IMG/VR virus record: IMGVR_UViG_3300033564_000224
Reading direction: 5' to 3' (one strand)
DNA length: 39,764 nucleotides
Origin: a virus
Shown here: piece by piece, positions 4,131 through 29,612 of the stretch
Layout: each line of letters opens with the position of its first letter
Position numbering within the stretch: the stretch's first letter is position 1
The notes under the pieces: model-generated
Database searches by the model: none
Told to the model about the DNA's origin: nothing
The model's input: only the letters and a program-made list of their open reading frames with translations
Made by a program: the position numbers and the translations under genes

Positions 4131-4216
4131 CTCACCACCACGATCAAAGCGATCACCAACGCCCAAAACAAAAAAGCCTCTGGCAAAATAAACAAACAAC
4201 CTTCTGCAAATTTCAT
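4127..4216 (-). CDS. possible 29-aa hydrophobic peptide
   Basis: MKFAEGCLFILPEAFLFWALVIALIVVVR, with AAGGA 8 nt upstream and its stop overlapping the next ATG (ATGA). Confidence 0.25.
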   Translation of the reverse strand: MKFAEGCLFILPEAFLFWALVIALIVVVR

Positions 4217-4221
4217 GTTGA

Positions 4222-4250
4222 TCATCCTTTATCCTTCATCCTTCATCCTT
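4222..4250 (-). repeat. GGATGAA-type heptamer tandem repeat at a gene junction
   Basis: Minus strand: AAGGATGAAGGATGAAGGATAAAGGATGA, containing the MuF-like stop codon. Confidence 0.7.
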
Positions 4251-5394: not shown

Positions 5395-5410
5395 TCAGCC
5401 TTCATCCTTA
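5379..5410 (-). repeat. GGATGAA-type heptamer repeat at the portal/MuF junction
   Basis: Minus strand: TAAGGATGAAGGCTGAATGATGAAGGATGAAG, spanning the portal stop and the MuF start. Confidence 0.7.
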
Positions 5411-6703
5411 GATGCTCAACCCTTTCAGGTTATTGGCAAACTGCGTGCTATCCATACCGTCACCGCTCATAATCTCAAGGTCTACATCACGCAAATAGCT
5501 CGCCAGAATGAGTTGAATGGTTTCTTCCTTCACACCCAAAATCCGCAGGCGTGAAGCGGCATCTGCCAGATCGCGCAGGTCAGTGGGTGAAAGGCTCTTT
5601 GCCTTGCGCCAGATGATCTTATATTTCACATTCGCCGGATAAATGCCGTGCAGCATCCACTCACGCTCGATCAACGGCTGAATGATTTGTACAGTTGCCC
5701 ACTCACGCCCCTGGTTGAGTGTCTCTTCATACGCTTCTTTTTTCTCGCCTAAAATATCGCGGTTCAGATCGGCGCCATACGCCATCAATTCCATCGGCAC
5801 ATCCGAAGCCGTGAATATGGTCCCGATGTGATGCTGTACATCACCAATCTTGTCAATATTTCCATCGCCCTGGTGTACTGTCAGCGAAGACGCCTTATTG
5901 CTGAAAAAATCAATCACCGCCGCCAGTTTGCCCAGCGCGGCTTTATTGTTTTCCTTGTACGTTTCCACATCCGCGGCATTGCCTTCGATTACATGTTGAC
6001 GCAACTGCGCCCCCCCGATCTTGCGCCGCACGGCTACATTCAATTCGCCGTCTTCCACATAGCGGAAGTGTTTGCGCGCGCTCTGCATCATCGGGCGTCC
6101 ATAGCGGCTTTCTTCATCGTGGTTCCAGCGCGCATGGATCAATTTCCATTCAGGAAACCACAGCGCATCTTTGGGAACATCCATACCGTAGAAATTATCG
6201 TCACCCATCCAGAAAGCGCGGTTCGCGCTATCAAACCGATCCGCAGTGTTTGAATTGCGGTGCATTCGCATCGTGGGTTTGCGTGTCACACTCGCCACCT
6301 GATAGATGGAGTTCGTCACCTGTGCGGGCGTCACCTCAAGAAACGAATCCCCATCGCGCATCGAAAGTCTCAGCCAATCTTCCAACGCTTGATTCAAGTG
6401 CAAACGTTCCTGCAAAGCCGAAACCACCTCGCTCGCCTGCGTGTTATCCGTCTTCAGCACAAACCCGCCGCGCAATAGATCGCGGGCATACATGCGGTGC
6501 ATCTTCTCAACCCGCGGATCACCGTCATACATGGCTCTGCAATCCTTGATGACAGACAGACGGTCACGCTCCACCTTGAAACGCGAATACACATCCTCAG
6601 TAATCACCGGTGCCGGGCTGGATGTCATTGCGAGCGCACTCTGCGAAGCAATCTCTGCATTTGGGTTCATAAACGCTCTAAAGCGATCTGATAATGTTGG
6701 CAT
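5408..6703 (-). CDS. portal protein
   Basis: 431 aa. Size, the MuF gene immediately downstream, and general portal-like sequence character support the call. No exact family was assigned. Confidence 0.65.
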   Translation of the reverse strand: MPTLSDRFRAFMNPNAEIASQSALAMTSSPAPVITEDVYSRFKVERDRLSVIKDCRAMYDGDPRVEKMHRMYARDLLRGGFVLKTDNTQASEVVSALQERLHLNQALEDWLRLSMRDGDSFLEVTPAQVTNSIYQVASVTRKPTMRMHRNSNTADRFDSANRAFWMGDDNFYGMDVPKDALWFPEWKLIHARWNHDEESRYGRPMMQSARKHFRYVEDGELNVAVRRKIGGAQLRQHVIEGNAADVETYKENNKAALGKLAAVIDFFSNKASSLTVHQGDGNIDKIGDVQHHIGTIFTASDVPMELMAYGADLNRDILGEKKEAYEETLNQGREWATVQIIQPLIEREWMLHGIYPANVKYKIIWRKAKSLSPTDLRDLADAASRLRILGVKEETIQLILASYLRDVDLEIMSGDGMDSTQFANNLKGLSI

Positions 6704-6730
6704 ATTTTGACCTTCTCAATTTTTACAAAA

Positions 6731-7141
6731 TTACTTCAACGCATCCTGCAACATCCGTTCCAGTTTTGGCAAATTGCGCTCGATGGTGCTCATTACCACT
6801 GCATACCGTCCGCCGTTGGATGTCTCCAGATATTTGCCATAAAAGACCGTGTGCCCCAATGTCACAACCAATGTATTGGCATCGCCGCTTTCCACAGCCA
6901 CGTCGCTCATCTCAGACTTTGACTCAGGTGTCACCATGCCAGTGATGGGACTCATCCCGAAGCCGTCCACAGCAAAAAACAAACCGCCGCGCGCATTCGC
7001 CGTCCGATCTTCCCAAATCGCTTCCTGCCGCGCCTCATCCTGAATAGACTGCCCCCAATAAGTTGCCACCGCCTGCACAGCGATCAAGGCATTTGCGCCA
7101 TACTTTTTGATGGCTGGAATCAACTGGTCACTCGGAGCCAC
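6731..7141 (-). CDS. HK97 gp10-like tail/neck component (start uncertain)
   Basis: LIPAIKKYGANALIAVQAVATYW...AIWEDRTANARGGL fits the gp10-family pattern. The tracked start at 7240 would overlap the upstream gene by 83 nt, so GTG at 7141 is preferred. Confidence 0.5.
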   Translation of the reverse strand: MAPSDQLIPAIKKYGANALIAVQAVATYWGQSIQDEARQEAIWEDRTANARGGLFFAVDGFGMSPITGMVTPESKSEMSDVAVESGDANTLVVTLGHTVFYGKYLETSNGGRYAVVMSTIERNLPKLERMLQDALK

Positions 7142-7157
7142 AACCCACTGAAAGCCG

Positions 7158-7475
7158 CTATTCAACTGCCACCGCCTCAGCAATCGTGCAAGCCAGTTTA
7201 TTGGGCTGCACAAAAACGACGTTGAACAAAATGCCGCCATAGGTCAAACGGTCATCAATCGCAATATCCATATTCGGCTCGCCCAAAATAAAAACAGCCT
7301 GGTTCGCCGAACGCGCCGCGTCACTCTGCAAGCGGAATCCGCGTGTGCCTGCATATTCGATCCGCATAGCCTGAGTTGTCAATGACGTAGCGCCGCGCCG
7401 AATAACCAGCGAAACCTCATTCTCCGCACGGATGGCGCGCATATCTTTCTGAGCCTGCGTCCAATCAAATGCCAT
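7158..7475 (-). CDS. head-tail adaptor / head closure protein
   Basis: 105 aa. Position and size fit. ATGA-type overlap with the upstream gene at 7475. Confidence 0.5.
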   Translation of the reverse strand: MAFDWTQAQKDMRAIRAENEVSLVIRRGATSLTTQAMRIEYAGTRGFRLQSDAARSANQAVFILGEPNMDIAIDDRLTYGGILFNVVFVQPNKLACTIAEAVAVE

Positions 7476-8101
7476 TACGCCATCCCAACTGCGCCGTTAT
7501 ATTGCGCGCACGCTTCAACGAATTCGCCATGCAGCTTGTACATCATCTGAGTCAATGATTCGATGCCCGCGCCCTTATCTACACTCACCGCGCCCAGGCT
7601 GTACTTCATGCCGCCCGCCGCCGCCGCAGAGTTGGCGATCTTCTCACTTGCCAGTTGTTTGGCTTTGATCAACACGATCTGCGTCTCAATATCTCCCAGC
7701 GTGGTGTAATCTCCAGCACTGGCAATCCAACCGGATTTATATTTATAGTTGCGCGTCAGGCTATAGGTGGGTGTTGGGGTAAAGGTGATCTGCTTGTTGG
7801 CAATCGTATATTGCTCATCCCAATCCGCAGACACCGGAATAATGCCGCTATTGGAGATAATCACGCCATCCACACCCGTCAGGCTGTCCAGAACGATCAT
7901 GCTCAAAAAATCAGACGCCAGGCTATAGGCAGGCGTGCCAGAAACAATATTCAACTCTGCCCACTTTGCCAATCCGCAACGGCGTGAAAATTCGAGCACG
8001 GCATCCTTCACCGCCTGCTCGTATTGCGCCGTGGTGGGGACGCTGTTCACCGCGGGAACTTCACTTTGTAAAACTGTCACCATTGCCGCAAGAGTTGTCA
8101 T
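7475..8101 (-). CDS. putative head-tail connector (gp6-like) protein
   Basis: 208 aa, downstream of the capsid gene and translationally coupled to its neighbours. Confidence 0.4.
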   Translation of the reverse strand: MTTLAAMVTVLQSEVPAVNSVPTTAQYEQAVKDAVLEFSRRCGLAKWAELNIVSGTPAYSLASDFLSMIVLDSLTGVDGVIISNSGIIPVSADWDEQYTIANKQITFTPTPTYSLTRNYKYKSGWIASAGDYTTLGDIETQIVLIKAKQLASEKIANSAAAAGGMKYSLGAVSVDKGAGIESLTQMMYKLHGEFVEACAQYNGAVGMA

Positions 8102-8322
8102 CTTCGTTTACCTTTTGATTTTCTTTTCACGGGTTCAACAACCAATAAGTTTTCTTGCATCTTCTCAGGCACGGGTTCTTTATTTTCATAAGTGATCCTA
8201 AAATCCGCATCACCTTCGAGGGTCATTGCCTGCTTATCGCTCATGTCCAGTACATGCCCCTCATGCACGTACTTTCCAAAAACCATCCGCACCCGCCGTC
8301 CCGTATAAACAATTTTCGCCAT
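8098..8322 (-). CDS. hypothetical small basic-tailed protein (74 aa, start re-assigned)
   Basis: ATG at 8322 with GGAG 7 nt upstream. The tracked longer form would include the post-capsid hairpin. Confidence 0.5.
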   Translation of the reverse strand: MAKIVYTGRRVRMVFGKYVHEGHVLDMSDKQAMTLEGDADFRITYENKEPVPEKMQENLLVVEPVKRKSKGKRR

Positions 8323-8333
8323 CGAAATCTCCA

Positions 8334-8366
8334 AAGGATGAGGGATAACTTTCATCCCTCATCCTT
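8334..8366 (-). promoter_or_regulatory. perfect 13-bp stem-loop directly after the capsid gene
   Basis: Minus strand: AAGGATGAGGGAT GAAAGTT ATCCCTCATCCTT. There is no U-tract. It abuts the SD of the next gene. Confidence 0.6.
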
Positions 8367-8380
8367 CATCATTCATCCTT
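8354..8380 (-). repeat. GGATGAA-type heptamer repeat after the capsid stop codon
   Basis: Minus strand: AAGGATGAATGATGAAGGATGAGGGAT. Confidence 0.7.
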
Positions 8381-8384
8381 GCTT

Positions 8385-10961
8385 TTAGGCTTGGATCTTC
8401 ACGTAAGCGCCCTTGCCGCCAATCGGGGCGAGAGAGCCGTTGTATTCTTCAGAGTAGTACTGTTCACCGGCAATGATCTTGCCGTTGCTGTAAATCGGGT
8501 AAGGACCCTTGACGGTCATCGGCTGGAAGACGCGGTGCATTACCAATTCGCGGTTCATGACCAACGCCCAGCCTTCGCGCATCTGAGTGGATGCGAACAC
8601 CGGCAAACCCTTCACACTGCCTGCAAATCCGGCAGAGTTGAGCACTGCATTGGAAAATCCCTGAACCTTGAAACCATCCCAATTGCTGAGAAGGTCCGCA
8701 TTGGTCACGCTCATCAAAATGCCGGTCGGTTCGTAATAACGGTTGGCAACCAACACTTTAGCGCTGCCAAGTTTTTCGACAAAACTGGCAATCGTATCGG
8801 CTGAAATATCATAGGTGCCGCCGCTGTTGCTTGCCACACCCAATGCAGCCGCCAAACCTTTCTCGATCAAAGCCTTGTCAATGTTGAGGCGTGTCTGACG
8901 GATGATGTTCGCCATGGTGCGAGCTACGGCGTCCCAGCCGAGTTGTGAACGGCTAAAGACAATCGCTTCACTGGAGATGTAATCAGCCAGGCGTAAAGCG
9001 GTCGCTTCAAGTGTCTGATAGCTGAGTGTCACTTTGGCGCGTTCAATTTCGGCATTCTCGCCCTTGGCAATTGCGTTATAGCTGTAATCCACAAGCAGAT
9101 CATTGGCGTCAATTGCGCCAGCGGCTAAAGCCTTGATCTTGCCCAATTCGTAATCGATCACGAAGTCAGTGCCTTCCACGTAGGTGGTGCCTGCGGGGTT
9201 GCTGGTGACAACGACAGTGCCGGGAGTAACATACGCATGAGCCAGCGCGTACCAGGTGCTTTCTGCGCCCGCAGTAACCTCTTCATCGGTGATGGCTACG
9301 GTATAGCCAGTTTCGCCGGTGAACGCCTCAAAATAAATGCGCTCAGATTGTGAGTTCATCATGCCCACATCGAACAGATTGGCAGCCACCAAATTGGGGA
9401 ATGCCTCAGCGATGATCGCGCGGCTGACCGAATACGGCAGGTTCAAATCAGTGGTCAATTCGGCTTCGTTGAACAGGCGGGCTTCGTTGATCAGTTTGCC
9501 TTTGTTCTGTTCGTCAAAACGAGCCAGCAATTGAGCGGTGAAAACACCAGCGCGGCTTTCTGCGCGCAAGTTGAGTTCAGTCTTCGAGCGCATTTCATTC
9601 TTGCGCAGGGATTCGGTGATCTCAAACGAAGCGCGTGCGAATTCGGGCGTGCCGGTCTCACGTTCGAGAACATCACCCAAAACCACGATGCCTTTCTTTT
9701 CATCGAAACCCATACCAACCAAAGCGCCTTTCGCGGCGAGCTTGCCGTATTCAGCGCGTTTGCTCTCGGTGAATTTCTTCACGGCATCAACGTCTTTCAG
9801 TTCAGCCGCTTTGAGCGCATCCACAAACGACTCATTCAAATCCTTGCCGAAAGGCAGGTCTTTGGTCGCTTCGGTAATGGCAACTTCAACAGCCGCCTTG
9901 CGCTGAGATTCCACCAATTGAGCCTTGGCAGTTTCGCCTTCAGCGATCATCTTCTGGGCTTCCTGCAATTGCTTGGCAAGATCAGCCTTTTCGTTTTGTA
10001 CTTTTTCTAAAAGTTCGTCAGACATTTCATCATCTCCATGTGATTGATTGATTGATTCGATTAGCGCGGCTGAATTCTCAAAGGATGGCTCCAGCACCAG
10101 GTCAAATCCTGTAATATGCAGTTCGCTCACTTCAAAAATCTTATCGCCGCTTTCAGTAACATTCTTGCCGTCACCATAACCGCGCAGACTCACGCCTGGC
10201 ATCACGCCGCCTTCCATCAAAGTCAGGATGTCCTTGCCTTTGGATGTTTCCAGCACGCGACCGATCACGTCTACGCGCTGACCGTTGAAAGTGACATCTT
10301 CCCACTTCACAACCGTTTCCAAAAAGCTAGCACGCCCGCCCTTGTCAGACGGATGTTCCGTCTCACCAAGAACCTGCACCGCCATGCCTTGCCCGTTGCT
10401 CTCATGCAGATGACCGCGTAATTCAGCGACCGCCGCAGAGATAACATTTGCAGAATATCGGCGACGATTGCCATTGACAATCCCCGCCGTCATTGCTCCT
10501 TCAATAATGATGCGCTTTTTTCCAGATTCGCTTTCTTCCAAAGCCACACGCGCATTCAATCGCTCTTCAAATTTCTTGCCGCGTTTCTTGCCGCTAACCA
10601 AAGCGCGCTCCCCTAACTGGGAGGATGTCATCATGCTTGCCGAGAGGGGCGCGGCAGGTTGATAACTCAACTCGACCTTTTCCCATAGATCACGTGTCTG
10701 GAAAACATAATCAGGACCTTCCGCGCCTTCTGTTTTCGGCGCATAAGTCACTTTCCAATATTCATCAGTCTTCAACGCCGAAAGCGAACCATATTCAGAA
10801 ACGATCACATGATCGGCAAAGATTTCATTGACGTAATACTCATCCCCGTTTTCATAAGGGAATTGTTTTCTGAAAGCCTCACGGATTTCGCTCATGGTGT
10901 AATCCATCGAACCTTTCACCAACTCTTCCAACGCTGTACCTTTATCAATTTTGTTAGCCAT
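8385..10961 (-). CDS. fused prohead protease-like / coiled-coil scaffold / HK97-fold major capsid polyprotein (858 aa)
   Basis: Residues ~150-300 (IIIEGAMTAGIVNGNRRRYS...VLGETEHPSD...GVSLRGYG) resemble prohead proteases. Residues ~310-420 are E/K/A-rich and coiled-coil-like. The C-terminal ~400 aa look like a major capsid protein. No separate protease, scaffold or capsid gene is present. Confidence 0.65.
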   Translation of the reverse strand: MANKIDKGTALEELVKGSMDYTMSEIREAFRKQFPYENGDEYYVNEIFADHVIVSEYGSLSALKTDEYWKVTYAPKTEGAEGPDYVFQTRDLWEKVELSYQPAAPLSASMMTSSQLGERALVSGKKRGKKFEERLNARVALEESESGKKRIIIEGAMTAGIVNGNRRRYSANVISAAVAELRGHLHESNGQGMAVQVLGETEHPSDKGGRASFLETVVKWEDVTFNGQRVDVIGRVLETSKGKDILTLMEGGVMPGVSLRGYGDGKNVTESGDKIFEVSELHITGFDLVLEPSFENSAALIESINQSHGDDEMSDELLEKVQNEKADLAKQLQEAQKMIAEGETAKAQLVESQRKAAVEVAITEATKDLPFGKDLNESFVDALKAAELKDVDAVKKFTESKRAEYGKLAAKGALVGMGFDEKKGIVVLGDVLERETGTPEFARASFEITESLRKNEMRSKTELNLRAESRAGVFTAQLLARFDEQNKGKLINEARLFNEAELTTDLNLPYSVSRAIIAEAFPNLVAANLFDVGMMNSQSERIYFEAFTGETGYTVAITDEEVTAGAESTWYALAHAYVTPGTVVVTSNPAGTTYVEGTDFVIDYELGKIKALAAGAIDANDLLVDYSYNAIAKGENAEIERAKVTLSYQTLEATALRLADYISSEAIVFSRSQLGWDAVARTMANIIRQTRLNIDKALIEKGLAAALGVASNSGGTYDISADTIASFVEKLGSAKVLVANRYYEPTGILMSVTNADLLSNWDGFKVQGFSNAVLNSAGFAGSVKGLPVFASTQMREGWALVMNRELVMHRVFQPMTVKGPYPIYSNGKIIAGEQYYSEEYNGSLAPIGGKGAYVKIQA

Positions 10962-10997
10962 GTTTTCACCTCATAAACGTTATAAACTTTATAAACA

Positions 10998-14115: not shown

Positions 14116-14163
14116 TTGAAAAACGATAGCGCCCGATGCTGACCTAAGTCAACATCGGGCGCT
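14116..14163 (-). terminator. rho-independent terminator downstream of the cassette array
   Basis: Minus strand: AGCGCCCGATGTTGAC TTAG GTCAGCATCGGGCGCT, then ATCGTTTTTC. The single non-Watson-Crick pair is G.U on the minus strand only. Confidence 0.75.
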
Positions 14164-14295: not shown

Positions 14296-14420
14296 GTCTA
14301 ACGGTTTGCGTTAGTGGTGATGGGTGAGAACCAAACCACCACGAACGGGATAATTTCAAAGTGTGGATGATGCCTGCAAACGGGGAGCATACCCATCATC
14401 CACTGCGCGCTTTGTTCGGC
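14296..14420 (-). repeat. attC-like site 10 (125 bp)
   Basis: Minus strand: R'' GCCGAAC...GTGG(A)TGATGGGT / ACCCATCACCAC stem...TAACGCAAACC, R' GTTAGAC. Confidence 0.75.
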
Positions 14421-14425
14421 GGCGT

Positions 14426-14872
14426 TTATCTTCCGATGCGTATAATTAGCATTAGGAAAATAGAAAATATAACCACGCACCCCACAATTGCGCCTGCGCC
14501 AATGTTTACCCACACCCATGCCGCCACCAATATTCCAACTGCCAGAAATAGCATTCCAGCGATTGAAGCAATAGTACCGCTCTTGTATTCTTCCGCCTCG
14601 CGGCGATGGTCGTAGGCTCTCAAATCTTTCGAGGCTTGTGTGCGCTCTCGGACGCTCTTATGGATTTCGGCATTGTCGCCTCTGCGATTCCGTATCCAAT
14701 TACGCCACGACTCATTATTTTCGCGTGCCGAAGCAATACCCTTGAGGGATCGCTTGATGTAGTTTCTTTGGTCAAACTGCTCCATACTATCCCAATTTGC
14801 GGGCTGTTCAATCGTGTGCATACAGCCGTTATCTTCATCCCACATTGTGACAGTTTCGGTTTTTTTACTCAT
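14426..14872 (-). CDS. cassette 10 ORF: C-terminally membrane-anchored protein (148 aa)
   Basis: ORF track. C-terminal hydrophobic stretch IASIAGMLFLAVGILVAAWVWVNIGAGAIVGCVVIFSIFLMLII. Its stop lies 5 nt before R''. Confidence 0.65.
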   Translation of the reverse strand: MSKKTETVTMWDEDNGCMHTIEQPANWDSMEQFDQRNYIKRSLKGIASARENNESWRNWIRNRRGDNAEIHKSVRERTQASKDLRAYDHRREAEEYKSGTIASIAGMLFLAVGILVAAWVWVNIGAGAIVGCVVIFSIFLMLIIRIGR

Positions 14873-14904
14873 AGTTTTCTCGCTTCTCGGCTGGCAAGGT
14901 AGCC

Positions 14905-15013
14905 GCCGAACGGACTGCGTTAGCCGCGTGTGCGACCAACCATAACCTTATTTTTTGGATGATACTTCTTTACGCCACAGCCTTGCACACGTCGGGTGAA
15001 CGCTTTGTTAGGT
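14905..15013 (-). repeat. attC-like site 9 (109 bp)
   Basis: R'' ACCTAAC...CCG(A)CGTGTGC / GCACACGCGG stem...CTAACGCAGTCC, R' GTTCGGC. Confidence 0.7.
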
Positions 15014-15183
15014 GCGCTCATAATTGTGGATGGTTCTATTTTTCCATCAGACGGGAAATCCACGTAGAGCGTACCATCATCATACGAGAAAACTTTAGCA
15101 CACGGAACGTGCCACAAATAGCCACGCGATTGTATTGTTTCCAGATTCTTATTTTCTTTACCACACGATAGACATTTTTCCAT
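14920..15183 (-). CDS. cassette 9 ORF: small Cys-containing (zinc-ribbon-like) protein whose 3' end reads through attC
   Basis: MEKCLSCGKEN...WHVPCAK. The stop is the conserved TAA of the attC 3' arm. Confidence 0.55.
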   Translation of the reverse strand: MEKCLSCGKENKNLETIQSRGYLWHVPCAKVFSYDDGTLYVDFPSDGKIEPSTIMSAPNKAFTRRVQGCGVKKYHPKNKVMVGRTRG

Positions 15184-15188
15184 GAAGC

Positions 15189-15301
15189 ACCTAATGATTT
15201 TCTTTACCCGCTCACGGCAGGCTCGGCATTTTCAACGAACACGACATCAGGCAGGCAATGAGCCGCCGTCTGGAGGGAGTCGGGTGCAAGCTGTGTTAAC
15301 C
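15189..15301 (-). repeat. attC-like site 8 (113 bp, degenerate R')
   Basis: R'' GGTTAAC ACA GCTT G CACCCG A C...GCGGGTAAAGAAAATC, R' ATTAGGT. Confidence 0.6.
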
Positions 15302-15491
15302 CGCTTTCTTGCTGGCTCACGCACTTTGCCAATAAAGCACCAAGACGGTAAACCTTGAAACTTCGATTTTCAACGCCGATCTTGTGACCAAGTACCAATT
15401 GTTTTGCGCTCATCGTTAGCATAATTTGTATGTTTGCTATATTATCTTTGTCGTCATAGAAAATCACTACGCTATAACTTTCTTTTGGCAT
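15204..15491 (-). CDS. cassette 8 ORF: hypothetical protein (95 aa, start re-assigned)
   Basis: ATG at 15491 after GGAAGGAGAG. The C-terminal ~35 aa are encoded by attC 8. Confidence 0.6.
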   Translation of the reverse strand: MPKESYSVVIFYDDKDNIANIQIMLTMSAKQLVLGHKIGVENRSFKVYRLGALLAKCVSQQESGLTQLAPDSLQTAAHCLPDVVFVENAEPAVSG

Positions 15492-15514
15492 ATTCTCTCC
15501 TTCCAAAAAGTGAG

Positions 15515-15606
15515 GGCTAACGGTTTGCTTTACTGGATTGGGGCGTTATAACCTCGGCAATAAAACGCCACGCCCGCCCCAAGTCCAGTGCAAGCGATTG
15601 TTAGAC
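15515..15606 (-). repeat. attC-like site 7 (92 bp)
   Basis: R'' GTCTAAC...R' GTTAGCC. It is 90/92 identical to site 6. Confidence 0.8.
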
Positions 15607-15951
15607 CCCGCCCCGTTCTGACGGGGCTTTGATTACACCGCCGTACTTTTCTATCAATTTCTGGCAGAACCCTTCGCTGATTTTTCCGCGCCAAATCTCT
15701 TGGGCGGGAACATCAATAACATATTTCTTTTTTCTCTCGACAGTTATCGCTCCGTTGCCTTCTATGCGTTCTCCGCGCAAATAGTAACTTCCATCATCTA
15801 CATTCGCTTCGTTTTCATAATGACCGACGGCTTGCGAGTGCTCGACAACTACGCCATCAGTGTAGATGGTTACTATATGGATTTCTTTCCCGTCGGAGTC
15901 AGGGAAAAAACGAAATGTTTCTCCAAACGTGAACTTCTCAACTTTTGCCAT
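15601..15951 (-). CDS. cassette 7 ORF: hypothetical protein (116 aa), paralog of the cassette 1 ORF
   Basis: 102/116 aa identical to 18613..18963. SD AAAGGAGAG. The stop TAA lies inside R'' (GTCTAAC). Confidence 0.75.
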   Translation of the reverse strand: MAKVEKFTFGETFRFFPDSDGKEIHIVTIYTDGVVVEHSQAVGHYENEANVDDGSYYLRGERIEGNGAITVERKKKYVIDVPAQEIWRGKISEGFCQKLIEKYGGVIKAPSERGGV

Positions 15952-15976
15952 TGCAACTCTCCTTTTACAAGATAAG

Positions 15977-16068
15977 GTCTAACGGTTTGCTTTACTGGCT
16001 TGGGGCGTTATAACCTCGGCAATAAAACGCCACGCCCGCCCCAAGTCCAGTGCAAGCGATTGTTAGAC
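15977..16068 (-). repeat. attC-like site 6 (92 bp)
   Basis: GTCTAAC AATC GCTT G CACTGG A CTTGGGGCG...CGCCCCAAG CCAGTA AAGC AAACC GTTAGAC. Confidence 0.8.
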
Positions 16069-16422
16069 CCCGCCCTGTTGAGCGGGAACGACTGCCAGTA
16101 GTGCGGCTCGACATATTGCAAGCGGTGCGGTTTCTGCGTTTGCTTCAAAACTCTCGAATGCATTGAAGATAACGCATACCCATCCGCGAATAGATGTACG
16201 TAAATCTACGTCATGCAATTCGTCAACAGACCCCATTTTTTCAACCACGTCCCACACACTTGTTATATTTTTTGAGTACGGATAAACACTTTCCCGACTT
16301 CCCAAAACATAAATAAACGGTGCGCCACGCTCCCAAACTATCTCACGCTTAAAAACATGCTCATCAATAAGCGCGTCCATTTTTCGCCCTGCGGGCATAT
16401 TCAAAATTTCATCTTTGGTCAT
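16063..16422 (-). CDS. cassette 6 ORF: hypothetical phage-type small protein (119 aa, start re-assigned)
   Basis: ATG at 16422 after GAAGGAGAAGG. MPAGRKMDALIDEHVF...YSKNITSVWDVVEKM...APLAICRAALLAV loosely recalls small phage accessory proteins. The tracked N-terminal extension is attC 5 sequence. Confidence 0.65.
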   Translation of the reverse strand: MTKDEILNMPAGRKMDALIDEHVFKREIVWERGAPFIYVLGSRESVYPYSKNITSVWDVVEKMGSVDELHDVDLRTSIRGWVCVIFNAFESFEANAETAPLAICRAALLAVVPAQQGGV

Positions 16423-16443
16423 AACCTTCTCCTTCACGAAGGG

Positions 16444-16554
16444 GTCTAACGGTTTGCGTAACCCGCAGGAGCGAGAACGCAAGACCACAAAATTATTTAC
16501 CAGAACGCTTTTTCGGCGTGACGTTGCTCCTGTCGGGTTCACGCTGTGTTAGGC
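16444..16554 (-). repeat. attC-like site 5 (111 bp)
   Basis: R'' GCCTAAC ACA GCGT G AACCCG A CAGGAGC...GCTCCTG CGGGTT ACGC AAACC, R' GTTAGAC. Confidence 0.8.
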
Positions 16555-16556
16555 AA

Positions 16557-17435
16557 CTAGCCATTAGACTCGCCTTCAACTGGCGAAGTAATTACATAAT
16601 CTTTCATCACAATGCCTTTTTCAATACTTCCGCGCACTTGGCTATTCCACCAATACATATCTTTATATTTTCCGAAAAGACCTTCTCCTTTTGAAAAATC
16701 CTTGAAATGTCCACGACAGATATGCAGTGATTGTTTCAATCCTAAACTTTCGGATTTTCCTTCCTCACGCAAAACTTTTTTCATCGGTTCAATTTCGAGA
16801 ACCTTATACTTAATTTTTGATGAATTCCTATTGCGTTTTTCATTTTTTTTATCATCTGATTTACGCGGAATAATTTCTACATTTTTACAATGTAGAAATG
16901 AAATTGCTAAAAGTGCTGGGTAAACATTCACAAATAATTCATCATATATTTTATGAACTCTTTCCGTTGCATTTATTTCTTCTGGAATAATTGCCATGTA
17001 TTGAACTTCTTCGCCATATTTAGCAATCCTTCCGTCTTTTTCGATTGCAAGCCCATACATAAAATAATCATTATTTACGCGCTCTGAATTTCCTAAAAAC
17101 AATGACATTAATAATCCCCACTTCGCCCCGCTCTCTGTAATGTCAACTGAACTAAATAAAACTCCAACACGAGTTCCGCTTGAATCGCGTTTATGATTTT
17201 CTCCATCGAAATGAAGCACTCCAGACGGCATTGAATATTCCATCCACATATTTTCAAATGGAGGCGCAAGGTTTGGAAAATCTTTTTCAAAATCCCATTC
17301 ATCTTGTTCACTTTTCCAAAAGTATTCAGCGACATTATCAATTAATATGATTTCCGAATTATCAATTTTAGAAATCATATCTTTAGTCAGAATACTGTTT
17401 TTGTTCTTAAGAATATTTCTATAAAGCGTATTCAT
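16557..17435 (-). CDS. cassette 5 ORF: hypothetical protein (292 aa), visibly AT-rich
   Basis: ORF track with SD AAAGGA. K/N/E/I-rich composition unlike the rest of the genome. C-terminal motif HICRGHFKDF...GLFGKY...WWNSQVRG was not recognised. Confidence 0.7.
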   Translation of the reverse strand: MNTLYRNILKNKNSILTKDMISKIDNSEIILIDNVAEYFWKSEQDEWDFEKDFPNLAPPFENMWMEYSMPSGVLHFDGENHKRDSSGTRVGVLFSSVDITESGAKWGLLMSLFLGNSERVNNDYFMYGLAIEKDGRIAKYGEEVQYMAIIPEEINATERVHKIYDELFVNVYPALLAISFLHCKNVEIIPRKSDDKKNEKRNRNSSKIKYKVLEIEPMKKVLREEGKSESLGLKQSLHICRGHFKDFSKGEGLFGKYKDMYWWNSQVRGSIEKGIVMKDYVITSPVEGESNG

Positions 17436-17453
17436 AATTTATCCTTTTGGGTT

Positions 17454-17541
17454 GCCTAACTTTTGCGTTACCCGCGCCGCGCCTGTAACCTGTCCAAAAA
17501 TGGCGGACGTGGCGCGGCGTCGGGTGCACGCCTTGTTAGAC
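17454..17541 (-). repeat. attC-like site 4 (88 bp)
   Basis: R'' GTCTAAC AAG GCGT G CACCCG A CGCCGCGCC...GGCGCGGCG CGGGTA ACGC AAAA, R' GTTAGGC. Confidence 0.8.
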
Positions 17542-17712
17542 CGCGCTCTCAATCACAAAGGTGTTGAAGTACGCAACAACCTTTTCCATCTCGGTAATTG
17601 CTACGGCATAACGCCGTGCTTCTTCGGTGCGCTCGGCTGGCTTTGCTTCACGCAACTTCATCAGCGCGAGTTTCAGAGATAGCATAACTTCTTCGTTTAC
17701 TGTTGTTTCCAT
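17536..17712 (-). CDS. cassette 4 ORF: 58-aa helical protein (below the ORF-track cutoff)
   Basis: Own translation: METTVNEEVMLSLKLALMKLREAKPAERTEEARRYAVAITEMEKVVAYFNTFVIESAV. SD AAGGA 7 nt upstream. The stop TAA lies inside R''. Confidence 0.55.
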   Translation of the reverse strand: METTVNEEVMLSLKLALMKLREAKPAERTEEARRYAVAITEMEKVVAYFNTFVIESAV

Positions 17713-17750
17713 TTTATTTTCCTTTACCGACTTCCTTTTGCAAGGGAGCG

Positions 17751-17841
17751 GCCTAACGGCTTGCGTTACTGGCTTGCGCCACTAACTTGATTGCTTTCAG
17801 GCGCGACGGCTGGCGCAAGTCCAGTGCACGCGGTGTTGGAA
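17751..17841 (-). repeat. attC-like site 3 (91 bp)
   Basis: R'' TTCCAAC ACC GCGT G CACTGG A CTTGCGCCA...TGGCGCAAG CCAGTA ACGC AAGCC, R' GTTAGGC. Confidence 0.8.
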
Positions 17842-18191
17842 GGCGTAGATGGATTTATGTATTCAAATTCGATACGTGTGACTTCAGCGGATGACGGCAC
17901 ACCCATTTCACGCATGAACATATCAATAAACCATTCCACGCTTTGACCTTCAAAACCTTCACGAATAACATCATCAGGAGTGATGTCGTAAAGCCTTTCA
18001 CGGCGGACATTTACCACGCGGATTTTTGCAAGGCGTTCAATCTTTTCACCTTGCTTCAAACCCATGCACTTTACACAGGCATTGAGTTCATCGCCTTTCT
18101 TCAACATCAGCCAACCCAAACGGCGAGTGACTGTCTTTTGTTGCTTTCGTACCTGCTCAGTTGTGAGCATGAATGAGATATTTCTAGCCAT
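17766..18191 (-). CDS. cassette 3 ORF: ASCH-domain-like protein (141 aa) with an attC-encoded tail
   Basis: ISFMLTTEQVRKQQKTVTRRLGW..LKKGDEL matches the ASCH N-terminal pattern. The last ~28 aa are translated from attC 3. Confidence 0.6.
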   Translation of the reverse strand: MARNISFMLTTEQVRKQQKTVTRRLGWLMLKKGDELNACVKCMGLKQGEKIERLAKIRVVNVRRERLYDITPDDVIREGFEGQSVEWFIDMFMREMGVPSSAEVTRIEFEYINPSTPSNTACTGLAPAVAPESNQVSGASQ

Positions 18192-18211
18192 AAGACACCT
18201 TTGCTTTAGCC

Positions 18212-18339
18212 TTCCAACGGTTTGCTTTACCAGCGCTGGGTGGGCGCGGATTCGGCTTGGGATGTGGATAATGCTGAGGCTTGTAAACTGCTTGTAGAAA
18301 CCGCCGAATCCCCAGCGTCGGGTGCAAGCTGTGTTGGGC
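18212..18339 (-). repeat. attC-like site 2 (128 bp)
   Basis: R'' GCCCAAC ACA GCTT G CACCCG A CGCTGGG...CCCAGCG CTGGTA AAGC AAACC, R' GTTGGAA. Confidence 0.75.
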
Positions 18340-18493
18340 GTTGTTTATCTTTACGAGCGGCTTCTATTGCCTTCAAGCGCGTCGCTGTTTCTGCAATGCA
18401 ATGACCTACGCCTGCACTAGACCACTCGTAAACATGATACATGCCATCAGCCCATTGAAAAATACGATAACCATTTGGAGCGCGTTTTGTCAT
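18227..18493 (-). CDS. cassette 2 ORF: hypothetical protein (88 aa, start re-assigned) with an attC-encoded tail
   Basis: ATG at 18493 after AAGGA. The C-terminal ~37 aa (RPTQLAPDAGDSAVS...) are encoded by attC 2. Confidence 0.6.
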   Translation of the reverse strand: MTKRAPNGYRIFQWADGMYHVYEWSSAGVGHCIAETATRLKAIEAARKDKQRPTQLAPDAGDSAVSTSSLQASALSTSQAESAPTQRW

Positions 18494-18526
18494 TTTCAAT
18501 TCCTTTATTGTGTTGAGCAAGGAAAC

Positions 18527-18618
18527 GCCCAACGGTTTGCGTTAGTTGCGTGGGGCGGCGTTACCTTCGCTTTCAGTACGCCAGCCCGCCCCACGTCAAC
18601 TGCACGCGATTGTTAGAC
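18527..18618 (-). repeat. attC-like site 1 (92 bp)
   Basis: R'' GTCTAAC AATC GCGT G CAGTTG A CGTGGGGCGG...CCGCCCCACG CAACTA ACGC AAACC, R' GTTGGGC. Confidence 0.8.
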
Positions 18619-18963
18619 CCCGCCCCGTTCTGACGGGGCTTTGATTACGCGGCCATACTTTGCTATAAGTTTTTGGCAGAAACTTTCACTGATTTGTCCG
18701 CGCCAAATTTCTTTGGGCGGGACATCCACAATGTATTTCTTTTTCCTTTCGACAGTTGTTCTTCCGTTACCTTCTATGCGTTCTCCGCGCAAATAGTAAC
18801 TTCCATCATCTACATTCACTTCGTTTTCATAATGACCGACGGCTTGCGTGTGTTCGACAACTACGCCATCAGTGTAGATGGTTACCACATGAATTTCTTT
18901 CCCGTTTGAGTCAGGGAAAAAACGGAACGTTTCCCCAAATGTGAACTTTTCAACTTTTGCCAT
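18613..18963 (-). CDS. cassette 1 ORF: hypothetical protein (116 aa), paralog of the cassette 7 ORF
   Basis: ORF track. Its leader TTAGACCTTATCTTGTAAAAGGAGAGTTGCA is identical to cassette 7. Confidence 0.75.
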   Translation of the reverse strand: MAKVEKFTFGETFRFFPDSNGKEIHVVTIYTDGVVVEHTQAVGHYENEVNVDDGSYYLRGERIEGNGRTTVERKKKYIVDVPPKEIWRGQISESFCQKLIAKYGRVIKAPSERGGV

Positions 18964-18988
18964 TGCAACTCTCCTTTTACAAGATAAG

Positions 18989-18995
18989 GTCTAAC
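18989..18995 (-). other. first core recombination site (GTTAGAC) at the head of the array, in an attI-like position
   Basis: Minus strand: TGA G TTAGAC. The core site directly follows the stop of the intI remnant. Identity with the cassette 7 copy starts exactly at this G. Confidence 0.65.
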
Positions 18996-19181
18996 TCATG
19001 ATTCTACTAGCGCACGCCGTATAACAGGTGACGCCAATTGACGATCCAACGGTGAACGAACTGCCGCGCCCCCAAGTAAATGTACATAGATCATTGTTGT
19101 CTCAAGTTTCTGATGTCCGAGCAACTCCTGAATAGTCCGAATATCCGTTCCCGATTGATATAAATGCGTCGCGTACTTCAT
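18996..19181 (-). pseudogene. intI: 5'-truncated integron integrase (intI-like tyrosine recombinase) remnant, C-terminal ~60 codons only
   Basis: [45 protein letters not shown] matches box II of tyrosine recombinases (LLGH...Y) plus the IntI-typical VRSPLD ending. An in-frame TGA lies 2 codons upstream of the first Met. Confidence 0.75.
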
Positions 19182-19215: not shown

Positions 19216-19360
19216 GCAAATTCCTGCCAAAGAACCGAAATCTCCGGGAGCTACCAACTCAACGGCGACACGCATTTCTCTGGCAGGAATTTGCCTGTGA
19301 ATATGAAATTGTAATAGAACGATCTTCACAAAATAAAACGCATCGCCCGTGGAAAAGAGT
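19216..19360. repeat. two interleaved perfect inverted repeats (14 bp and 13 bp)
   Basis: gcaaattcctgcca (19216-19229) pairs with tggcaggaatttgc (19281-19294). gagctaccaactc (19248-19260) pairs with gagttggtagctc (19347-19359). The order is A-B-A'-B'. Confidence 0.8.
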
Positions 19361-19375
19361 TGGTAGCTCGGTTTC

Positions 19376-19404
19376 ATTTTACAAGCTACGATTCTCAATG
19401 TCAA
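19376..19404 (-). promoter_or_regulatory. near-consensus sigma70 promoter pointing into the intI remnant and cassette array
   Basis: Minus strand: TTGACA (19404-19399), a 17-nt spacer, then TAAAAT (19381-19376). Confidence 0.6.
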
Positions 19405-20752: not shown

Positions 20753-20760
20753 ATCACCAT

Positions 20761-20780
20761 TTATCTTTCATCTTTCATCG
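20761..20780 (-). repeat. GATGAAA heptamer repeat variant upstream of 20276..20752
   Basis: Minus strand: CGATGAAAGATGAAAGATAA. Confidence 0.5.
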
Positions 20781-20882
20781 CTCAACCCGCCAAACTCTCC
20801 CCTCCCCTATCTATGGAGGATGTCCGTTTCCACGTCCACACCCAGCGCACGCACAAAACCATACATCGGGGGAGGGGGGTTA

Positions 20883-22255: not shown

Positions 22256-23158
22256 CTAATTGATCTTCTTGACATTATGCGCAGACATGTACTCTTTCAC
22301 CGTCATTTGCGCCCGATCTCGTTCCAACCGCGCTATCCTCTGCATATCCGCATCCGACAACTCAGCCTCGACAACCTTAGAAACCTTAGAAACCTCAGAA
22401 ACCTCAACAACTTTAGAAACCTCAGCAACCTCAGCAACCTTACCAACCTCACTCACCACCGGCGCTCTCACCGCCACCGGCACATCCACCGCCTCACCGC
22501 CGCCCAGCGCAATCCCAAACTGCCGCGCCACCAACGCCGGATTCCACGGCTCGATCCACTGCCCCGGCTGATTTCCAAACGCCTCAGTTGCAATCAACCG
22601 GTTGATCAAAATTCGGTGAAACGCCTGGTACTGCTCACGATCCGTAATCACCTTATCCGGGTCAAAATGGCACGCGCCCTCATTGAAACTATTCGCCGGA
22701 TACATGGCATACTGCGAAGAGTGCTCTAGCAAGTACTCCACAAACTCCACCCGCACCCTCGGGTCAGCATCCAGCACCCAATCCACCAGATCACCCAACT
22801 TCGCTTCAGTGACCCGCCATTTGGTTTTTCTTTGCATCAGCAACAGCTTCACCGCCTCCGGGTGCATCGTCCGCGCAAACTCAAACAATCGAGTTTCAGG
22901 AGTCGTAGTAACCGCATTGCGCTTATCGATGTAATCCTGCACATCCAAATGCCGATAATACGCACCAAACGCCGCCCAAGCCTGAATCCCCAAAATGGGC
23001 ATCATCCCGATCACGAGGAAGTTGCACCAGCCCAGCCACAGCCAGGTATTGCGCTCAGAGATCATATTCACCCACGCCCCCAGCGGAACCATCGCCAGCA
23101 TCACAATCGCAGGCACCAGCCACTTCCATACTCTCGGTTCGCTAATCATCCCAATCAC
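22256..23158 (-). CDS. membrane protein with C-terminal (V-x-E/K)n repeat (300 aa)
   Basis: Two or three N-terminal hydrophobic helices. EVGKVAEVAEVSKVVEVSEVSKVSKVVE is encoded by 9-bp tandem repeats. Confidence 0.55.
   Translation of the reverse strand: MIGMISEPRVWKWLVPAIVMLAMVPLGAWVNMISERNTWLWLGWCNFLVIGMMPILGIQAWAAFGAYYRHLDVQDYIDKRNAVTTTPETRLFEFARTMHPEAVKLLLMQRKTKWRVTEAKLGDLVDWVLDADPRVRVEFVEYLLEHSSQYAMYPANSFNEGACHFDPDKVITDREQYQAFHRILINRLIATEAFGNQPGQWIEPWNPALVARQFGIALGGGEAVDVPVAVRAPVVSEVGKVAEVAEVSKVVEVSEVSKVSKVVEAELSDADMQRIARLERDRAQMTVKEYMSAHNVKKIN
22371..22451. repeat. nine tandem copies of a 9-bp unit (consensus gaaacctca) inside a CDS
   Basis: acaacctta gaaacctta gaaacctca gaaacctca acaacttta gaaacctca gcaacctca gcaacctta ccaacctca. 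Confidence 0.85.
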
Positions 23159-29169: not shown

Positions 29170-29612
29170 TTTGAGCCGCTCCATATCCCAGAAGTATCAT
29201 TGTTCATACTGTCAAGAATATCGGCGATGCGTTTGAGTTGAGCGGCTTGCAATAGTGTGGCGCGGATTTGTGTCTGCATGAGTTCGATCTTTACCTGTTC
29301 CGATAACTCGCCAATCTGTGCGACATAGCGGTCTTGGCTTGATACCATGCGTTCAATTTCATTCCATGTGTTGATAGCCGAAACAATATCGGCATCTATT
29401 ACGCCGGTTTGTTCGCGGACGAGTGCGGCGTGCGCGTTTTTGAGATCCTGTTGTTTCGCGCTCCACTGAGCCTCGGTCTGCCTGCGGAAGTTGAGAAGTT
29501 CTTCGGCGTGCGCGCCAAAACCTTCGGCGTCTTCAAGATCAAAGCAGGGGTCATACAACCAAGCGGCTTTCAGCTTTTCAATTTCTGAGGGTGTTCTTTT
29601 TTTATCGGTCAT
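29166..29612 (-). CDS. hypothetical protein (148 aa)
   Basis: ORF track. No family recognised. Confidence 0.5.
   Translation of the reverse strand: MTDKKRTPSEIEKLKAAWLYDPCFDLEDAEGFGAHAEELLNFRRQTEAQWSAKQQDLKNAHAALVREQTGVIDADIVSAINTWNEIERMVSSQDRYVAQIGELSEQVKIELMQTQIRATLLQAAQLKRIADILDSMNNDTSGIWSGSK

Follow-up and report, generated by a model that had tools for sequence, protein, structure and literature searches.

Insertion of a gene cassette into an integron reportedly splits the core site of the 59-base element, or attC, as Hall, Brookes and Stokes described in 1991 and Stokes et al. in 1997. By this mechanism, the integrase IntI would act on the bottom strand of attC (here the + strand) in its folded form and recombine it with either attI or another attC. 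Insertion would cut the cassette's own R box: the linear cassette would keep RYYYAAC, the stem and a G at its 3' end and have the TTRRRY of the split box as its first six bases. Each attC of an array would then carry a chimeric R' box, i.e. its own G and the TTRRRY of the next cassette downstream, and the perfectly pairing boxes should be those that border one cassette, not those within one site. Cassette boundaries have been described as 'defined by two GTTRRRY sequences' (PMC3053210). Published attC sites measure 57-141 bp and cross over within the AAC of R'; their bottom strand is marked by extrahelical bases opposite AAC, and a conserved T lies some 6 bp away from the first of these (PMC5027507). 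In the literature, that first base is 'usually G'. Integrons are also found in less typical settings. The CALIN, by the IntegronFinder definition an attC cluster lacking an integron-integrase, occurs in phages, and Vibrio and Shewanella prophages offer cases of integron capture (Qi et al. 2023, PMC9892861). Class 1 integrons are present in P1-like phage-plasmids (PMC9600943), and in the atypical, co-oriented integrons of the Treponema denticola type intI is transcribed towards attI (PMC3607928).

How does the present locus compare? The window, i.e. the whole 39,764-nucleotide stretch analysed (IMG/VR record IMGVR_UViG_3300033564_000224), is a circular tailed-phage genome of ~39.7-kb whose contig ends overlap by 43 nt. 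A tailed phage (Caudoviricetes) gene set lies on this one replicon, with PHROGs matches to TerL (7e-93), a head protease/capsid fusion, and portal-like and head-morphogenesis proteins. The phage also encodes plasmid-like ParM and primase functions and is syntenic with the GenBank virus Rctr41k. Judged from sequence data, and with a probability of about 93%, positions 14296-19181 (minus strand) would represent a ten-cassette integron array within this phage genome, each cassette having been inserted by IntI as a circle.

A scripted recount of the window gives ten attC sites within 14296-18618, and a covariance model (R1) built from these ten found no further attC in the window. As read on the + strand, each of the ten has NNNNAAC as its left box and GTTNNNN as its right box, and the terminal boxes RYYYAAC and GTTRRRY are present in inverted orientation at 10 of 10 sites, the sole deviation being an AAT at site 3. 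Assigned to the minus strand, with R1 scores in bits, they are site 10 (18527..18618; 78.6; boxes GCCCAAC/GTTAGAC), site 9 (18212..18339; 86.6; TTCCAAC/GTTGGGC), site 8 (17751..17841; 79.8), site 7 (17454..17541; 68.9; GCCTAAC/GTTAGAC), site 6 (16444..16554; 87.2), site 5 (15977..16068; 86.6), site 4 (15515..15606; 80.4), site 3 (15189..15301; 62.8, the lowest; ACCTAAT/GTTAACC), site 2 (14905..15013; 89.6; GCCGAAC/GTTAGGT) and site 1 (14296..14420; 85.2). The span first noted, 14296-18995, reaches exactly from the first box of site 1 to the last base of the attI box described below.

Central to the interpretation is the relationship between the boxes. For ten junctions, the right box of one site, less its first base, was compared with the left box of the following site, less its last base; the lone left box GTCTAAC at 18989-18995, the 11th, closes the series. 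The sequence-only reading had claimed perfect complementarity with the next site at 8 of 10 junctions, non-consensus pairs included, and one mismatch at each of the other two. The recount gives the same figure of 8/10: GTTCGGC/GCCGAAC, GTTAGGT/ACCTAAT, GTTGGAA/TTCCAAC and GTTGGGC/GCCCAAC are all perfect, and single mismatches occur at junctions 3>4 and 7>8, both C.A on the bottom strand. Within sites, only site 5 has a right box that matches its own left box perfectly, which is the 1 in 10 first reported, and own-site complementarity falls far short of next-site complementarity (17 mismatches in total versus 2). The offset is beyond chance: with the boxes randomly re-paired in 200,000 permutations, P is 5e-5 for eight or more perfect matches and 1.5e-5 for a mismatch sum no higher than observed. 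Other offsets between -3 and +3 yield 0-2 perfect matches each, and the variable box positions 4-7 track the next site (0.89-0.97), not their own (0.42-0.86). The complementary boxes are thus those flanking a cassette, and the one-site offset is real, the textbook scar of integron cassette insertion. Since it is the classical basis of the cassette boundary definition, the footprint is not new.

The sites also fold as attC. Their inner stems are 96% paired versus 83% for the own-site R box, compensatory changes are present in 10 of 16 inner-stem pairs, and the covariation score is reached by none of 500 shuffles (slid controls show 34-39% pairing). The palindrome of L box and stem is thereby conserved in structure, not sequence. 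When the cassettes are circularised in silico, the reconstituted attC folds better at seven sites, equally well at three and worse at none; the summed single-stranded DNA folding energy of the ten sites goes from -210.6 to -233.3 kcal/mol, with gains of 1.9-4.4 kcal/mol per improved site and no gain from boxes borrowed from other sites. The same rule is found in other arrays. Virus Rctr41k (L001) has a full-length IntI (TIGR02249, 383 bits versus a cutoff of 265), an attI box and 6 attC, and its junctions pair perfectly with the next site in 6/6 cases and with the own site in 0/6. Of 200 non-redundant junctions in IMG/VR viral arrays, 161 pair perfectly and 24 with a single mismatch; own-site pairing is found in 34/267, and random pairing gives a mean of 21.6/200. 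Recount, permutation, circularised folding and independent arrays all favour the original proposal that IntI-mediated insertion predicts the offset, and its corollary, that a linear cassette opens with the TTRRRY of its own circular-form attC, is upheld.

With classical integron arrays the locus shares the RYYYAAC/GTTRRRY boxes, L box, unpaired spacer, extrahelical bases and variable loop, single-ORF cassettes with attC downstream, and a chimeric R' box whose last six bases come from the next cassette, which is the observed offset; in the footprint itself there is no difference. What sets it apart is a distinctive attC subtype, AAC-GGTTT-GCKTTAC...GTC...GTGCAMGC-N3-4-GTT, in which the first unpaired base may be C instead of G.

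The array is adjoined by a remnant of an integron-integrase gene, delta-intI (18996..19181, minus strand), consisting of the last ~58 codons and ending ...RSPLD...VES*. It matches Pfam PF00589 (E=3.5e-10), and its best NCBIfam match is to positions 268-314 of 315 of the TIGR02249 integron integrase (E=2.7e-16). A full-length intI with the IntI-specific additional domain is absent, the equivalent of TIGR02249 268-314 being all that is present, and no more intI fragments were found upstream of the remnant, which aligns with the C-termini of full-length IntI proteins from related viral contigs. A second tyrosine recombinase (28231-29184) is Xer-like. Directly next to the delta-intI TGA stop lies the putative attI crossover box (18989..18995; minus-strand sequence GTTAGAC). 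The true R'' of site 10 is complementary to this box, whose G is that of attI and whose TTAGAC is that of cassette 10. The original attI would be the source of the outer six bases of site 1 (GTCTAA as read on the + strand). The layout GAATCA-TGA-GTTRRRY recurs in two further loci, L216 and L231; in most of ten IntI loci inspected, the intI stop is followed by a GTTRRRY box at a distance of 0-16 nt. At such a distance attI must overlap the coding end of intI, and delta-intI probably also carries the integrase-binding part of attI.

With ten attC sites and a truncated intI, the locus has the at least two attC and the lack of a functional intI in the element that define a CALIN, here in a phage genome. 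However, delta-intI and the attI box are still attached, which makes it a once complete, now decayed integron and not an orphan cluster; it also differs in that its ten cassettes form a long array and its syntenic relatives keep the complete platform. Because intI is truncated, the array may be a fossil; with the resident gene dead, its cassettes could be shuffled further only by an IntI provided in trans. As in the Treponema denticola type, intI, attI and cassettes all point in the same direction, remnant and ORFs being on the minus strand, and this co-orientation recurs in the relatives examined. The likeness seen is one of layout, and here the replicon is a phage and the attI box is 0-16 nt from the intI stop. 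An integron platform on a phage genome, and one encoding ParM and primase, is likewise shared with phage-plasmid and prophage integrons, but the present one is not class 1/Tn402 and is without resistance genes.

The ten cassettes, all with minus-strand ORFs and each with its attC downstream of the ORF's stop codon, encode mostly proteins of unknown function by Pfam and PHROGs. First after attI is cassette 10 (18533-18994; ORF 18613-18963, 116 aa), followed by cassette 9 (18218-18532; ORF 18227-18493), cassette 8 (17757-18217; ORF 17766-18191, 141 aa), cassette 7 (17460-17756; ORF 17536-17712, 58 aa), cassette 6 (16450-17459; ORF 16557-17435, 292 aa, matching phrog_20769 of unknown function), cassette 5 (15983-16449; ORF 16063-16422, with a Phage_ABA_S domain, Pfam PF18066), cassette 4 (15521-15982; ORF 15601-15951, 116 aa, a paralogue of cassette 10), cassette 3 (15195-15520; ORF 15204-15491), cassette 2 (14911-15194; ORF 14920-15183, 87 aa, its end inside attC) and, last of the array, cassette 1 (14302-14910; ORF 14426-14872, a 148-aa membrane protein). 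Mobility is seen in the same cassette at different arrays or positions. Cassettes 4 and 10 form a direct repeat (D1) of 89% identity over 300 nt, and their likeness breaks off directly after GTCTAAC (repeats D1 and D6). Cassette 8 is also present in the arrays of L083 (92% identity) and L049 (82%), among different neighbours. Its end boxes covary between arrays, GTTGGAA/TTCCAAC becoming GTTGGCA/AGCCAAC; in L049 one mismatch is left, at the outermost base (full complementarity would read TGCCAAC).

Was the array assembled or inherited within the phage lineage, or did the phage take a genuine array as one block out of a bacterial chromosomal integron, through illegitimate recombination or imprecise excision? 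Capture has precedent, as the complete phage integrons in publications are mostly such captures (PMC9892861); a truncated intI is expected at a capture boundary, and the cassette proteins, being mostly of unknown function, would also suit that origin. It is nevertheless unlikely here, in view of the related genomes. In Rctr41k and four other relatives (L168, L181, L198 and L190), attC sites follow a full-length or near full-length intI at the same genome position, after a block of Xer, primase, ParM, g20276 and g19939; in L168 and Rctr41k the integron lies before the terminase module and is co-oriented with the phage genes. Among GTDB species representatives, no bacterial IntI relative found exceeds 50% identity to the Rctr41k IntI, versus 68-72% among viral contigs, and no DNA matches were found in plasmid or phage record collections. 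Unlike the Vibrio and Shewanella prophage cases, no capture of a host chromosomal integron is visible, and the integron locus is a conserved feature of a family of environmental phages. The array stands where related phages hold a complete, co-oriented integron. This context, a ten-cassette array with a decayed integrase gene in a place where relatives are intact, is of more interest than the offset.

A second question concerns polarity. The same integron mechanism could in principle apply with the + strand as top strand and crossover in the GTTNNNN boxes, as read on that strand; each attC would then be assigned to the neighbouring ORF at lower coordinates, with every gene antisense to the array. 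The symmetric complementarity of the boxes suits either polarity equally, and the + strand looks like a textbook top strand, its sites reading RYYYAAC...GTTRRRY. Several features make this arrangement very improbable. The extrahelical bases lie on the 3' arm of the + strand, opposite AAC on the 5' arm. Counted from the 3' end, one is a bulged T, invariant, at 22/23 and the other a C/G at 15/16; 6 bp separate the two, which is the layout of the published bottom-strand signature (the first position is ambiguous between C and G, and at site 6 the C is clearly unpaired). Moreover, the ORFs are all on the minus strand with attC past each stop codon, the intI remnant and attI box read towards the array from its high-coordinate end, all related complete loci have their R1 matches downstream of intI on the strand opposite to the model, and it is at the NNNNAAC box, not a GTTNNNN box, that the duplicate cassettes cease to be similar. 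The cassette top strand is therefore the minus strand, the + strand is the bottom strand, and the crossover-bearing box, or true R', is NNNNAA|C as read on the + strand. At site 3, where the crossover triplet is AAT, the true R' becomes ATTAGGT. The pair ATTAGGT/ACCTAAC of the sequence-only reading thus holds on the minus strand, which that reading probably already used, but not on the + strand, where it is GTTAGGT/ACCTAAT. Its phrase 'footprint of G|TT crossover' stands as regards the scar of IntI insertion but not the exact position. With symmetric complementarity and invariant box positions 1-3, the exchange can be placed only within the GTT/AAC triplet or the adjacent spacer; the footprint alone settles neither polarity nor exact bond, and we infer the phosphodiester exchanged, G|TT, from published biochemistry.

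That the repeats are instead REP-like elements, terminator hairpins or MITE-like inverted repeats round small genes, the offset being a by-product of the terminal inverted repeats of another mobile unit, is hardly credible: the sites are intergenic imperfect palindromes, some terminator-like by score, and the window has no Rfam match, so no curated RNA/DNA-structure model confirms any of them, yet their RYYYAAC/GTTRRRY boxes, spacer, bulged T and asymmetric loop fit published attC anatomy, their lengths of 88-128 nt lie inside the published range, the first box is adjoined by a C-terminal IntI fragment, and the same repeat family directly follows full-length IntI genes in many loci.

The locus also has candidate transcription signals, both from a consensus scan and both on the minus strand. 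A promoter-like site at 19376..19404 (TTGACA-17-TAAAAT, 11/12 sigma-70-like) points into delta-intI and the cassettes and is a candidate cassette promoter, in a region where the total of promoter-like sites is not above chance. A strong terminator-like hairpin at 14128..14163 (16 pairs, then a T run), 130 nt beyond the last attC, may mark the end of the array transcript.

Ten imperfect palindromes of 88-128 nt, numbered here from low coordinates, lie at 14296-18618 (+), each starting with NNNNAAC and finishing with GTTNNNN, and an eleventh box, GTCTAAC, stands alone at 18989-18995. A covariance model made from the ten sites (R1, also A1) finds the same ten and no others in the 39.8-kb window. 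Between sites there is one ORF each, all on the minus strand, with the stop codon beside or within the site on the low-coordinate side. The sequence-only reading had noticed that the boxes match with an offset of one site, and this observation is confirmed. In a script recount, 8 of 10 junctions, every non-consensus pair included, show perfect complementarity between the last six bases of GTTNNNN and the six that open the next NNNNAAC; the remaining two, 3>4 and 7>8, carry one mismatch apiece, and a match to the own box is found in 1/10 (site 5 only), just as had been claimed. Apart from +1, the offsets between -3 and +3 yield only 0-2 perfect matches, and the same boxes re-paired randomly reach 8/10 with P = 5e-5. 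Both one-mismatch junctions (15295-15301/15515-15521 and 17535-17541/17751-17757) are transitions: on the bottom (+) strand the result is a C.A mismatch, on the top strand a G.T wobble. Site 3 (box at 15189-15195), with ATTAGGT as its true R', has the crossover triplet AAT, elsewhere universally conserved as AAC, and scores lowest with the model. Cassettes 2 and 3 may be locked in their positions.

The repeats are attC sites, and there are four grounds for this: stem covariation, the pairing of R boxes, the adjoining C-terminus of an integron integrase (IntI) and the absence of further intI. In an alignment of the ten sites the inner stem is 96% paired, with compensatory double changes in 10/16 pairs, e.g. 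ACTGG/CCAGT, ACCCG/CGGGT, AGTGG/CCACT and AGTTG/CAACT. In 500 column shuffles the observed covariation was never reached, and pairing fell to 34-39% when partner columns were slid. The outer R box in this alignment is only 83% paired with its own-site partner, and every failure falls at variable positions: this is the offset seen at the level of structure. Giving each crossover box, in silico, the six outer bases of the following site rebuilds attC as it would be in the circular cassette; on this check, proposed with the original observation, seven sites fold with a + strand DNA energy lower by 1.9-4.4 kcal/mol and three show no change. The summed energy goes from -210.6 (linear) to -233.3 kcal/mol (circularised), and control boxes from any other site give, on average, no gain. 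An Rfam gathering scan of the whole window gave no match.

IntI binds attC as a folded bottom strand. One strand is exchanged with attI or with another attC, replication resolves the atypical Holliday junction, and the inserted circle is thereby opened within its own R box. Cleavage takes place between A and C of R', which is the exact bond (PMC5027507). The chimeric boxes, the site structure, the polarity, the attI position and the recurrence of a cassette were all observed here, and the reading of the offset as IntI-mediated insertion is supported, with caveats on polarity and resolution.

Which strand is the top strand? Box complementarity is symmetric in either reading direction, so it does not identify the top strand. 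The minus strand is assigned as such on four independent lines: structure, ORF strand, the position of intI and attI, and the breakpoints of cassettes 4 and 10. In the + strand structure the AAC triplet lies on the 5' arm and unpaired extra bases lie on the 3' arm: a bulged T, which is invariant, at 22/23 from the 3' end and an asymmetric loop (T versus GC) at 15/16, with six pairs separating the two extrahelical positions. This agrees with the description of the recombinogenic bottom strand, where extrahelical bases are opposite AAC, at position 16 and at a conserved T 23/24, with a 6-bp stem between (Nivina et al. 2016, PMC5027507). The cassette ORFs are all on the minus strand, each with attC downstream, and the high-coordinate end holds the intI remnant and the lone box, both reading toward the array. 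In the 89% identical paralogous cassettes 4 and 10, similarity stops exactly past GTCTAAC, at 15983 and 18995 (direct repeats D1 and D6), which places the cassette boundary within the + strand NNNNAAC box. The true R' is therefore the reverse complement of this box, and the exchange point between AA and C on the + strand is that between G and TT on the minus strand. One non-consensus pair quoted earlier, ATTAGGT/ACCTAAC, holds in the minus-strand reading only, which the sequence-only reading seems to have used.

The claim of a crossover footprint between G and TT stands in part. Among 209 pooled junctions, box positions 4-7 show Watson-Crick complementarity of 0.89-0.97 to the next site and 0.42-0.86 to the own site; positions 1-3 (GTT) are invariant and uninformative, so the exchange is narrowed only to GTT/AAC or the neighbouring spacer. 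An exchange in that region holds good; the exact bond is known from the literature (PMC5027507) and not from the window. As a pointer to polarity or to the exact bond, the footprint is ruled out by the symmetric relation and the invariant positions. As the classical evidence on where cassettes cross over, it is already known biology. Its use lies in clean, assay-free delimitation of cassettes and in proof of attC identity. The chimeric R box rule reportedly goes back to Hall et al. 1991 and Stokes et al. 1997; on this rule, only a general definition of cassette boundaries was found in PMC3087341 and PMC3053210.

The true cassettes are, in + coordinates with the top strand minus, cassette 1 at 14302-14910, 2 at 14911-15194, 3 at 15195-15520, 4 at 15521-15982, 5 at 15983-16449, 6 at 16450-17459, 7 at 17460-17756, 8 at 17757-18217, 9 at 18218-18532 and 10, which adjoins attI, at 18533-18994. 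Cassette 8, which encodes a 141-aa protein, recurs in arrays of two viral contigs, L083 (7793-8278, 92% identity) and L049 (10105-10588, 82%), among unrelated neighbours. Its end boxes covary, GTTGGAA...TTCCAAC becoming GTTGGCA...AGCCAAC, with full complementarity missed by one base. This is direct evidence that a cassette's end boxes are the two halves of a single R box. What the cassettes do is hinted at little by Pfam and PHROGs, where the ten ORFs yield one domain (Phage_ABA_S, role unknown) and function-unknown phrogs, and nothing else. Cassettes 4 and 10 both encode 116-aa proteins of unknown function from ORFs that are 89% identical; their attC sites are only ~67% identical, with compensatory stem changes between them, and attC 4 is closer to its neighbour attC 5 (93% identity).

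Directly past the lone box is a 61-codon ORF (18996-19181, -) that encodes a tyrosine recombinase C-terminus (PF00589). The best NCBIfam match of this remnant, delta-intI, is the integron integrase TIGR02249, at positions 268-314 of 315, and no more intI sequence is detectable upstream of it. A GTTRRRY box lies 0-16 nt past the intI stop in most of ten IntI loci inspected, so attI would have to overlap the end of the intI coding sequence; this content may explain why just this 3' piece survived. The attI subtype of the window, GAATCA-TGA-GTTRRRY, where the stop TGA abuts GTT, is shared with the loci L216 and L231. An attI crossover box near the intI stop is seen in the window at 18989-19010, and also in L216, L231, L001 (Virus Rctr41k), L170 and others. 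A second tyrosine recombinase, at 28231-29184, was rejected as an IntI, as it is Xer-like and without the IntI-specific region. With intI cut to 58 codons, the array could presumably now be changed only by IntI acting in trans. Consensus scans, which are weak evidence, give an 11/12 near-consensus sigma-70 promoter-like site, TTGACA-17-TAAAAT, at 19404-19376 (-) upstream of delta-intI and a strong, GC-rich, 16-bp terminator-like hairpin at 14163-14128 (-) just beyond the last attC. These two signals bracket the array and may define its transcript. In the non-coding stretch 19216-19364, which lies upstream of delta-intI, two long-range inverted repeats are nested: GCAAATTCCTGCC/GGCAGGAATTTGC and GAGCTACCAACTC/GAGTTGGTAGCTC.

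The offset is repeated in a relative. The large terminase subunit (TerL) of the window is 66% identical to the terminase of Virus Rctr41k (GenBank KX853513), from a DAMO/anammox enrichment. R1 detects six attC sites in Rctr41k (4680-10101), and the gene upstream of them is annotated 'xerD' (integrase-like protein). This gene encodes a full-length integron integrase (TIGR02249, 383 bits vs a cutoff of 265, 2-315 of 315), and an attI box, GTTATGC, lies one base past its stop codon. The junctions attI>1 through 5>6 are perfect next-site matches in 6/6, and in no site do the own boxes match; non-consensus boxes are among them, e.g. GTTGTGC/GCACAAC and GTTGGCA/TGCCAAC. This deposited phage record contains a complete co-oriented integron, seemingly unrecognised. 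From IMG/VR contigs, a motif scan together with R1 searches yielded 200 non-redundant junctions: 161 match the next site perfectly and 24 with a single mismatch. The average under random pairing is 21.6/200 (maximum 41 in 2000 trials), and own-site pairing is perfect in 34/267 sites.

Window positions 1-43 are identical to 39722-39764, and these 43-nt ends indicate a closed circle of about 39,721 bp. Structural genes are those for TerL (phrog_38, 7e-93), a head protease/capsid fusion, and portal-like and head-morphogenesis proteins; a primase, a ParM-like actin, an Xer-like tyrosine recombinase and a large serine recombinase belong to replication and maintenance. This gene content points to the complete genome of a tailed temperate phage, or possibly a phage-plasmid. 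The gene order on the minus strand is Xer, primase, g22256, ParM, g20276, g19939, intI-attI-cassettes, small membrane protein, g12574, TerL and capsid. It is shared with viral contig L168, and also with L181, L198, L190 and Rctr41k as far as the loci extend. The IntI of L168 has one in-frame stop; the stop falls in the IntI-specific GWFWVFP patch (gene at 10001-10996) and could denote a pseudogene or a sequencing error. In L216 and L233 (TerL 72% and 80% identical) IntI is placed between Xer and primase instead. Nearly all IntI-bearing viral loci with R1-detected attC have the sites directly downstream of intI and co-oriented with it. An IntI profile search of IMG/VR gave 443 IntI-like stretches, most of them to be read as candidates, with hallmark phage genes checked in a minority; the best 80 of the 443 are 40-72% identical over the full length.

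How did a phage come to carry this array? As a decayed integron, i.e. a cluster of attC sites lacking an integron-integrase (CALIN) with delta-intI, it is of a kind already known in phages. The one systematic screen that the literature search brought up, of 10,705 NCBI phage genomes, found 3 complete integrons, 1 In0 and 17 CALINs (Qi et al. 2023, PMC9892861), and the complete ones were mostly captures from hosts or plasmids (PMC9892861). Partial genomes were left out of that screen, which is why Rctr41k was missed (PMC9892861). The array DNA has no match among INPHARED phages or PLSDB plasmids, and the Rctr41k IntI has none in a single-protein scan of GTDB genomes; a profile scan of GTDB with IntI returned relatives of <=50% identity only, with few attC of this subtype. 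Co-orientation of intI is shared with Treponema integrons, where it is known (PMC3607928). We put a probability of roughly 0.6 on the reading that an environmental phage or phage-plasmid family has its own vertically inherited integron platform, of which the window is a member with a decayed intI and ten cassettes kept. Such a family would consist of tailed phages or phage-plasmids of roughly 37-48 kb with ParM, primase, and Xer-like and serine recombinases, Rctr41k included; intI would be co-oriented with the cassettes, attI would overlap the intI stop codon, and the locus would be conserved between the replication/partition block and the packaging module. The array was probably built by IntI insertion events in the window phage or its ancestors. 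Judged from gene order, synteny supports this putative, apparently inherited platform. That a ten-cassette array is syntenic with the complete co-oriented integrons of relatives suggests that some phage lineages keep integrons as their own platform for accessory-gene exchange.

A literature search for an integron lineage native to phages brought up Qi et al. 2023 and Pfeifer et al. 2022 and no others; in the full text searched, no phage family was described as having an integron platform that is syntenic and apparently inherited, and nothing on 'Rctr41k' was found. The phage-family context is the part worth pursuing, ahead of the footprint itself. If the reading is true, integrons are a native cargo-exchange system in some phages, beyond accidental capture, and viral databases may hold hundreds of them. 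Phage-maintained integrons would open a phage route for cassette traffic among bacteria, and the functions of phage-borne cassettes become a testable question, with anti-defence and superinfection exclusion as candidate roles.

Some smaller features deserve mention. Among the 80 bacterial loci with the most similar IntIs (L248-L327, <=50% identity) the attC subtype is rare (7 matches), and the co-oriented layout is seen only in the Acidobacteriota MAGs L300 and L321, which may hint at host range. On the minus strand of the window, the heptad motif (A)AGGATGA occurs in tandem, in three or four copies, at 2758-2815, 4204-4261, 5363-5420, 8334-8391 and 20754-20788. The repeats sit right before the start codons of several genes, late or structural ones, and could be a shared leader or ribosome-binding element. 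Approximately 12 tandem 9-nt units at 22357-22464, in the ORF 22256-23158 beside the ParM-like gene, code for a peptide repeat of the (V/A)xE/K-V type.
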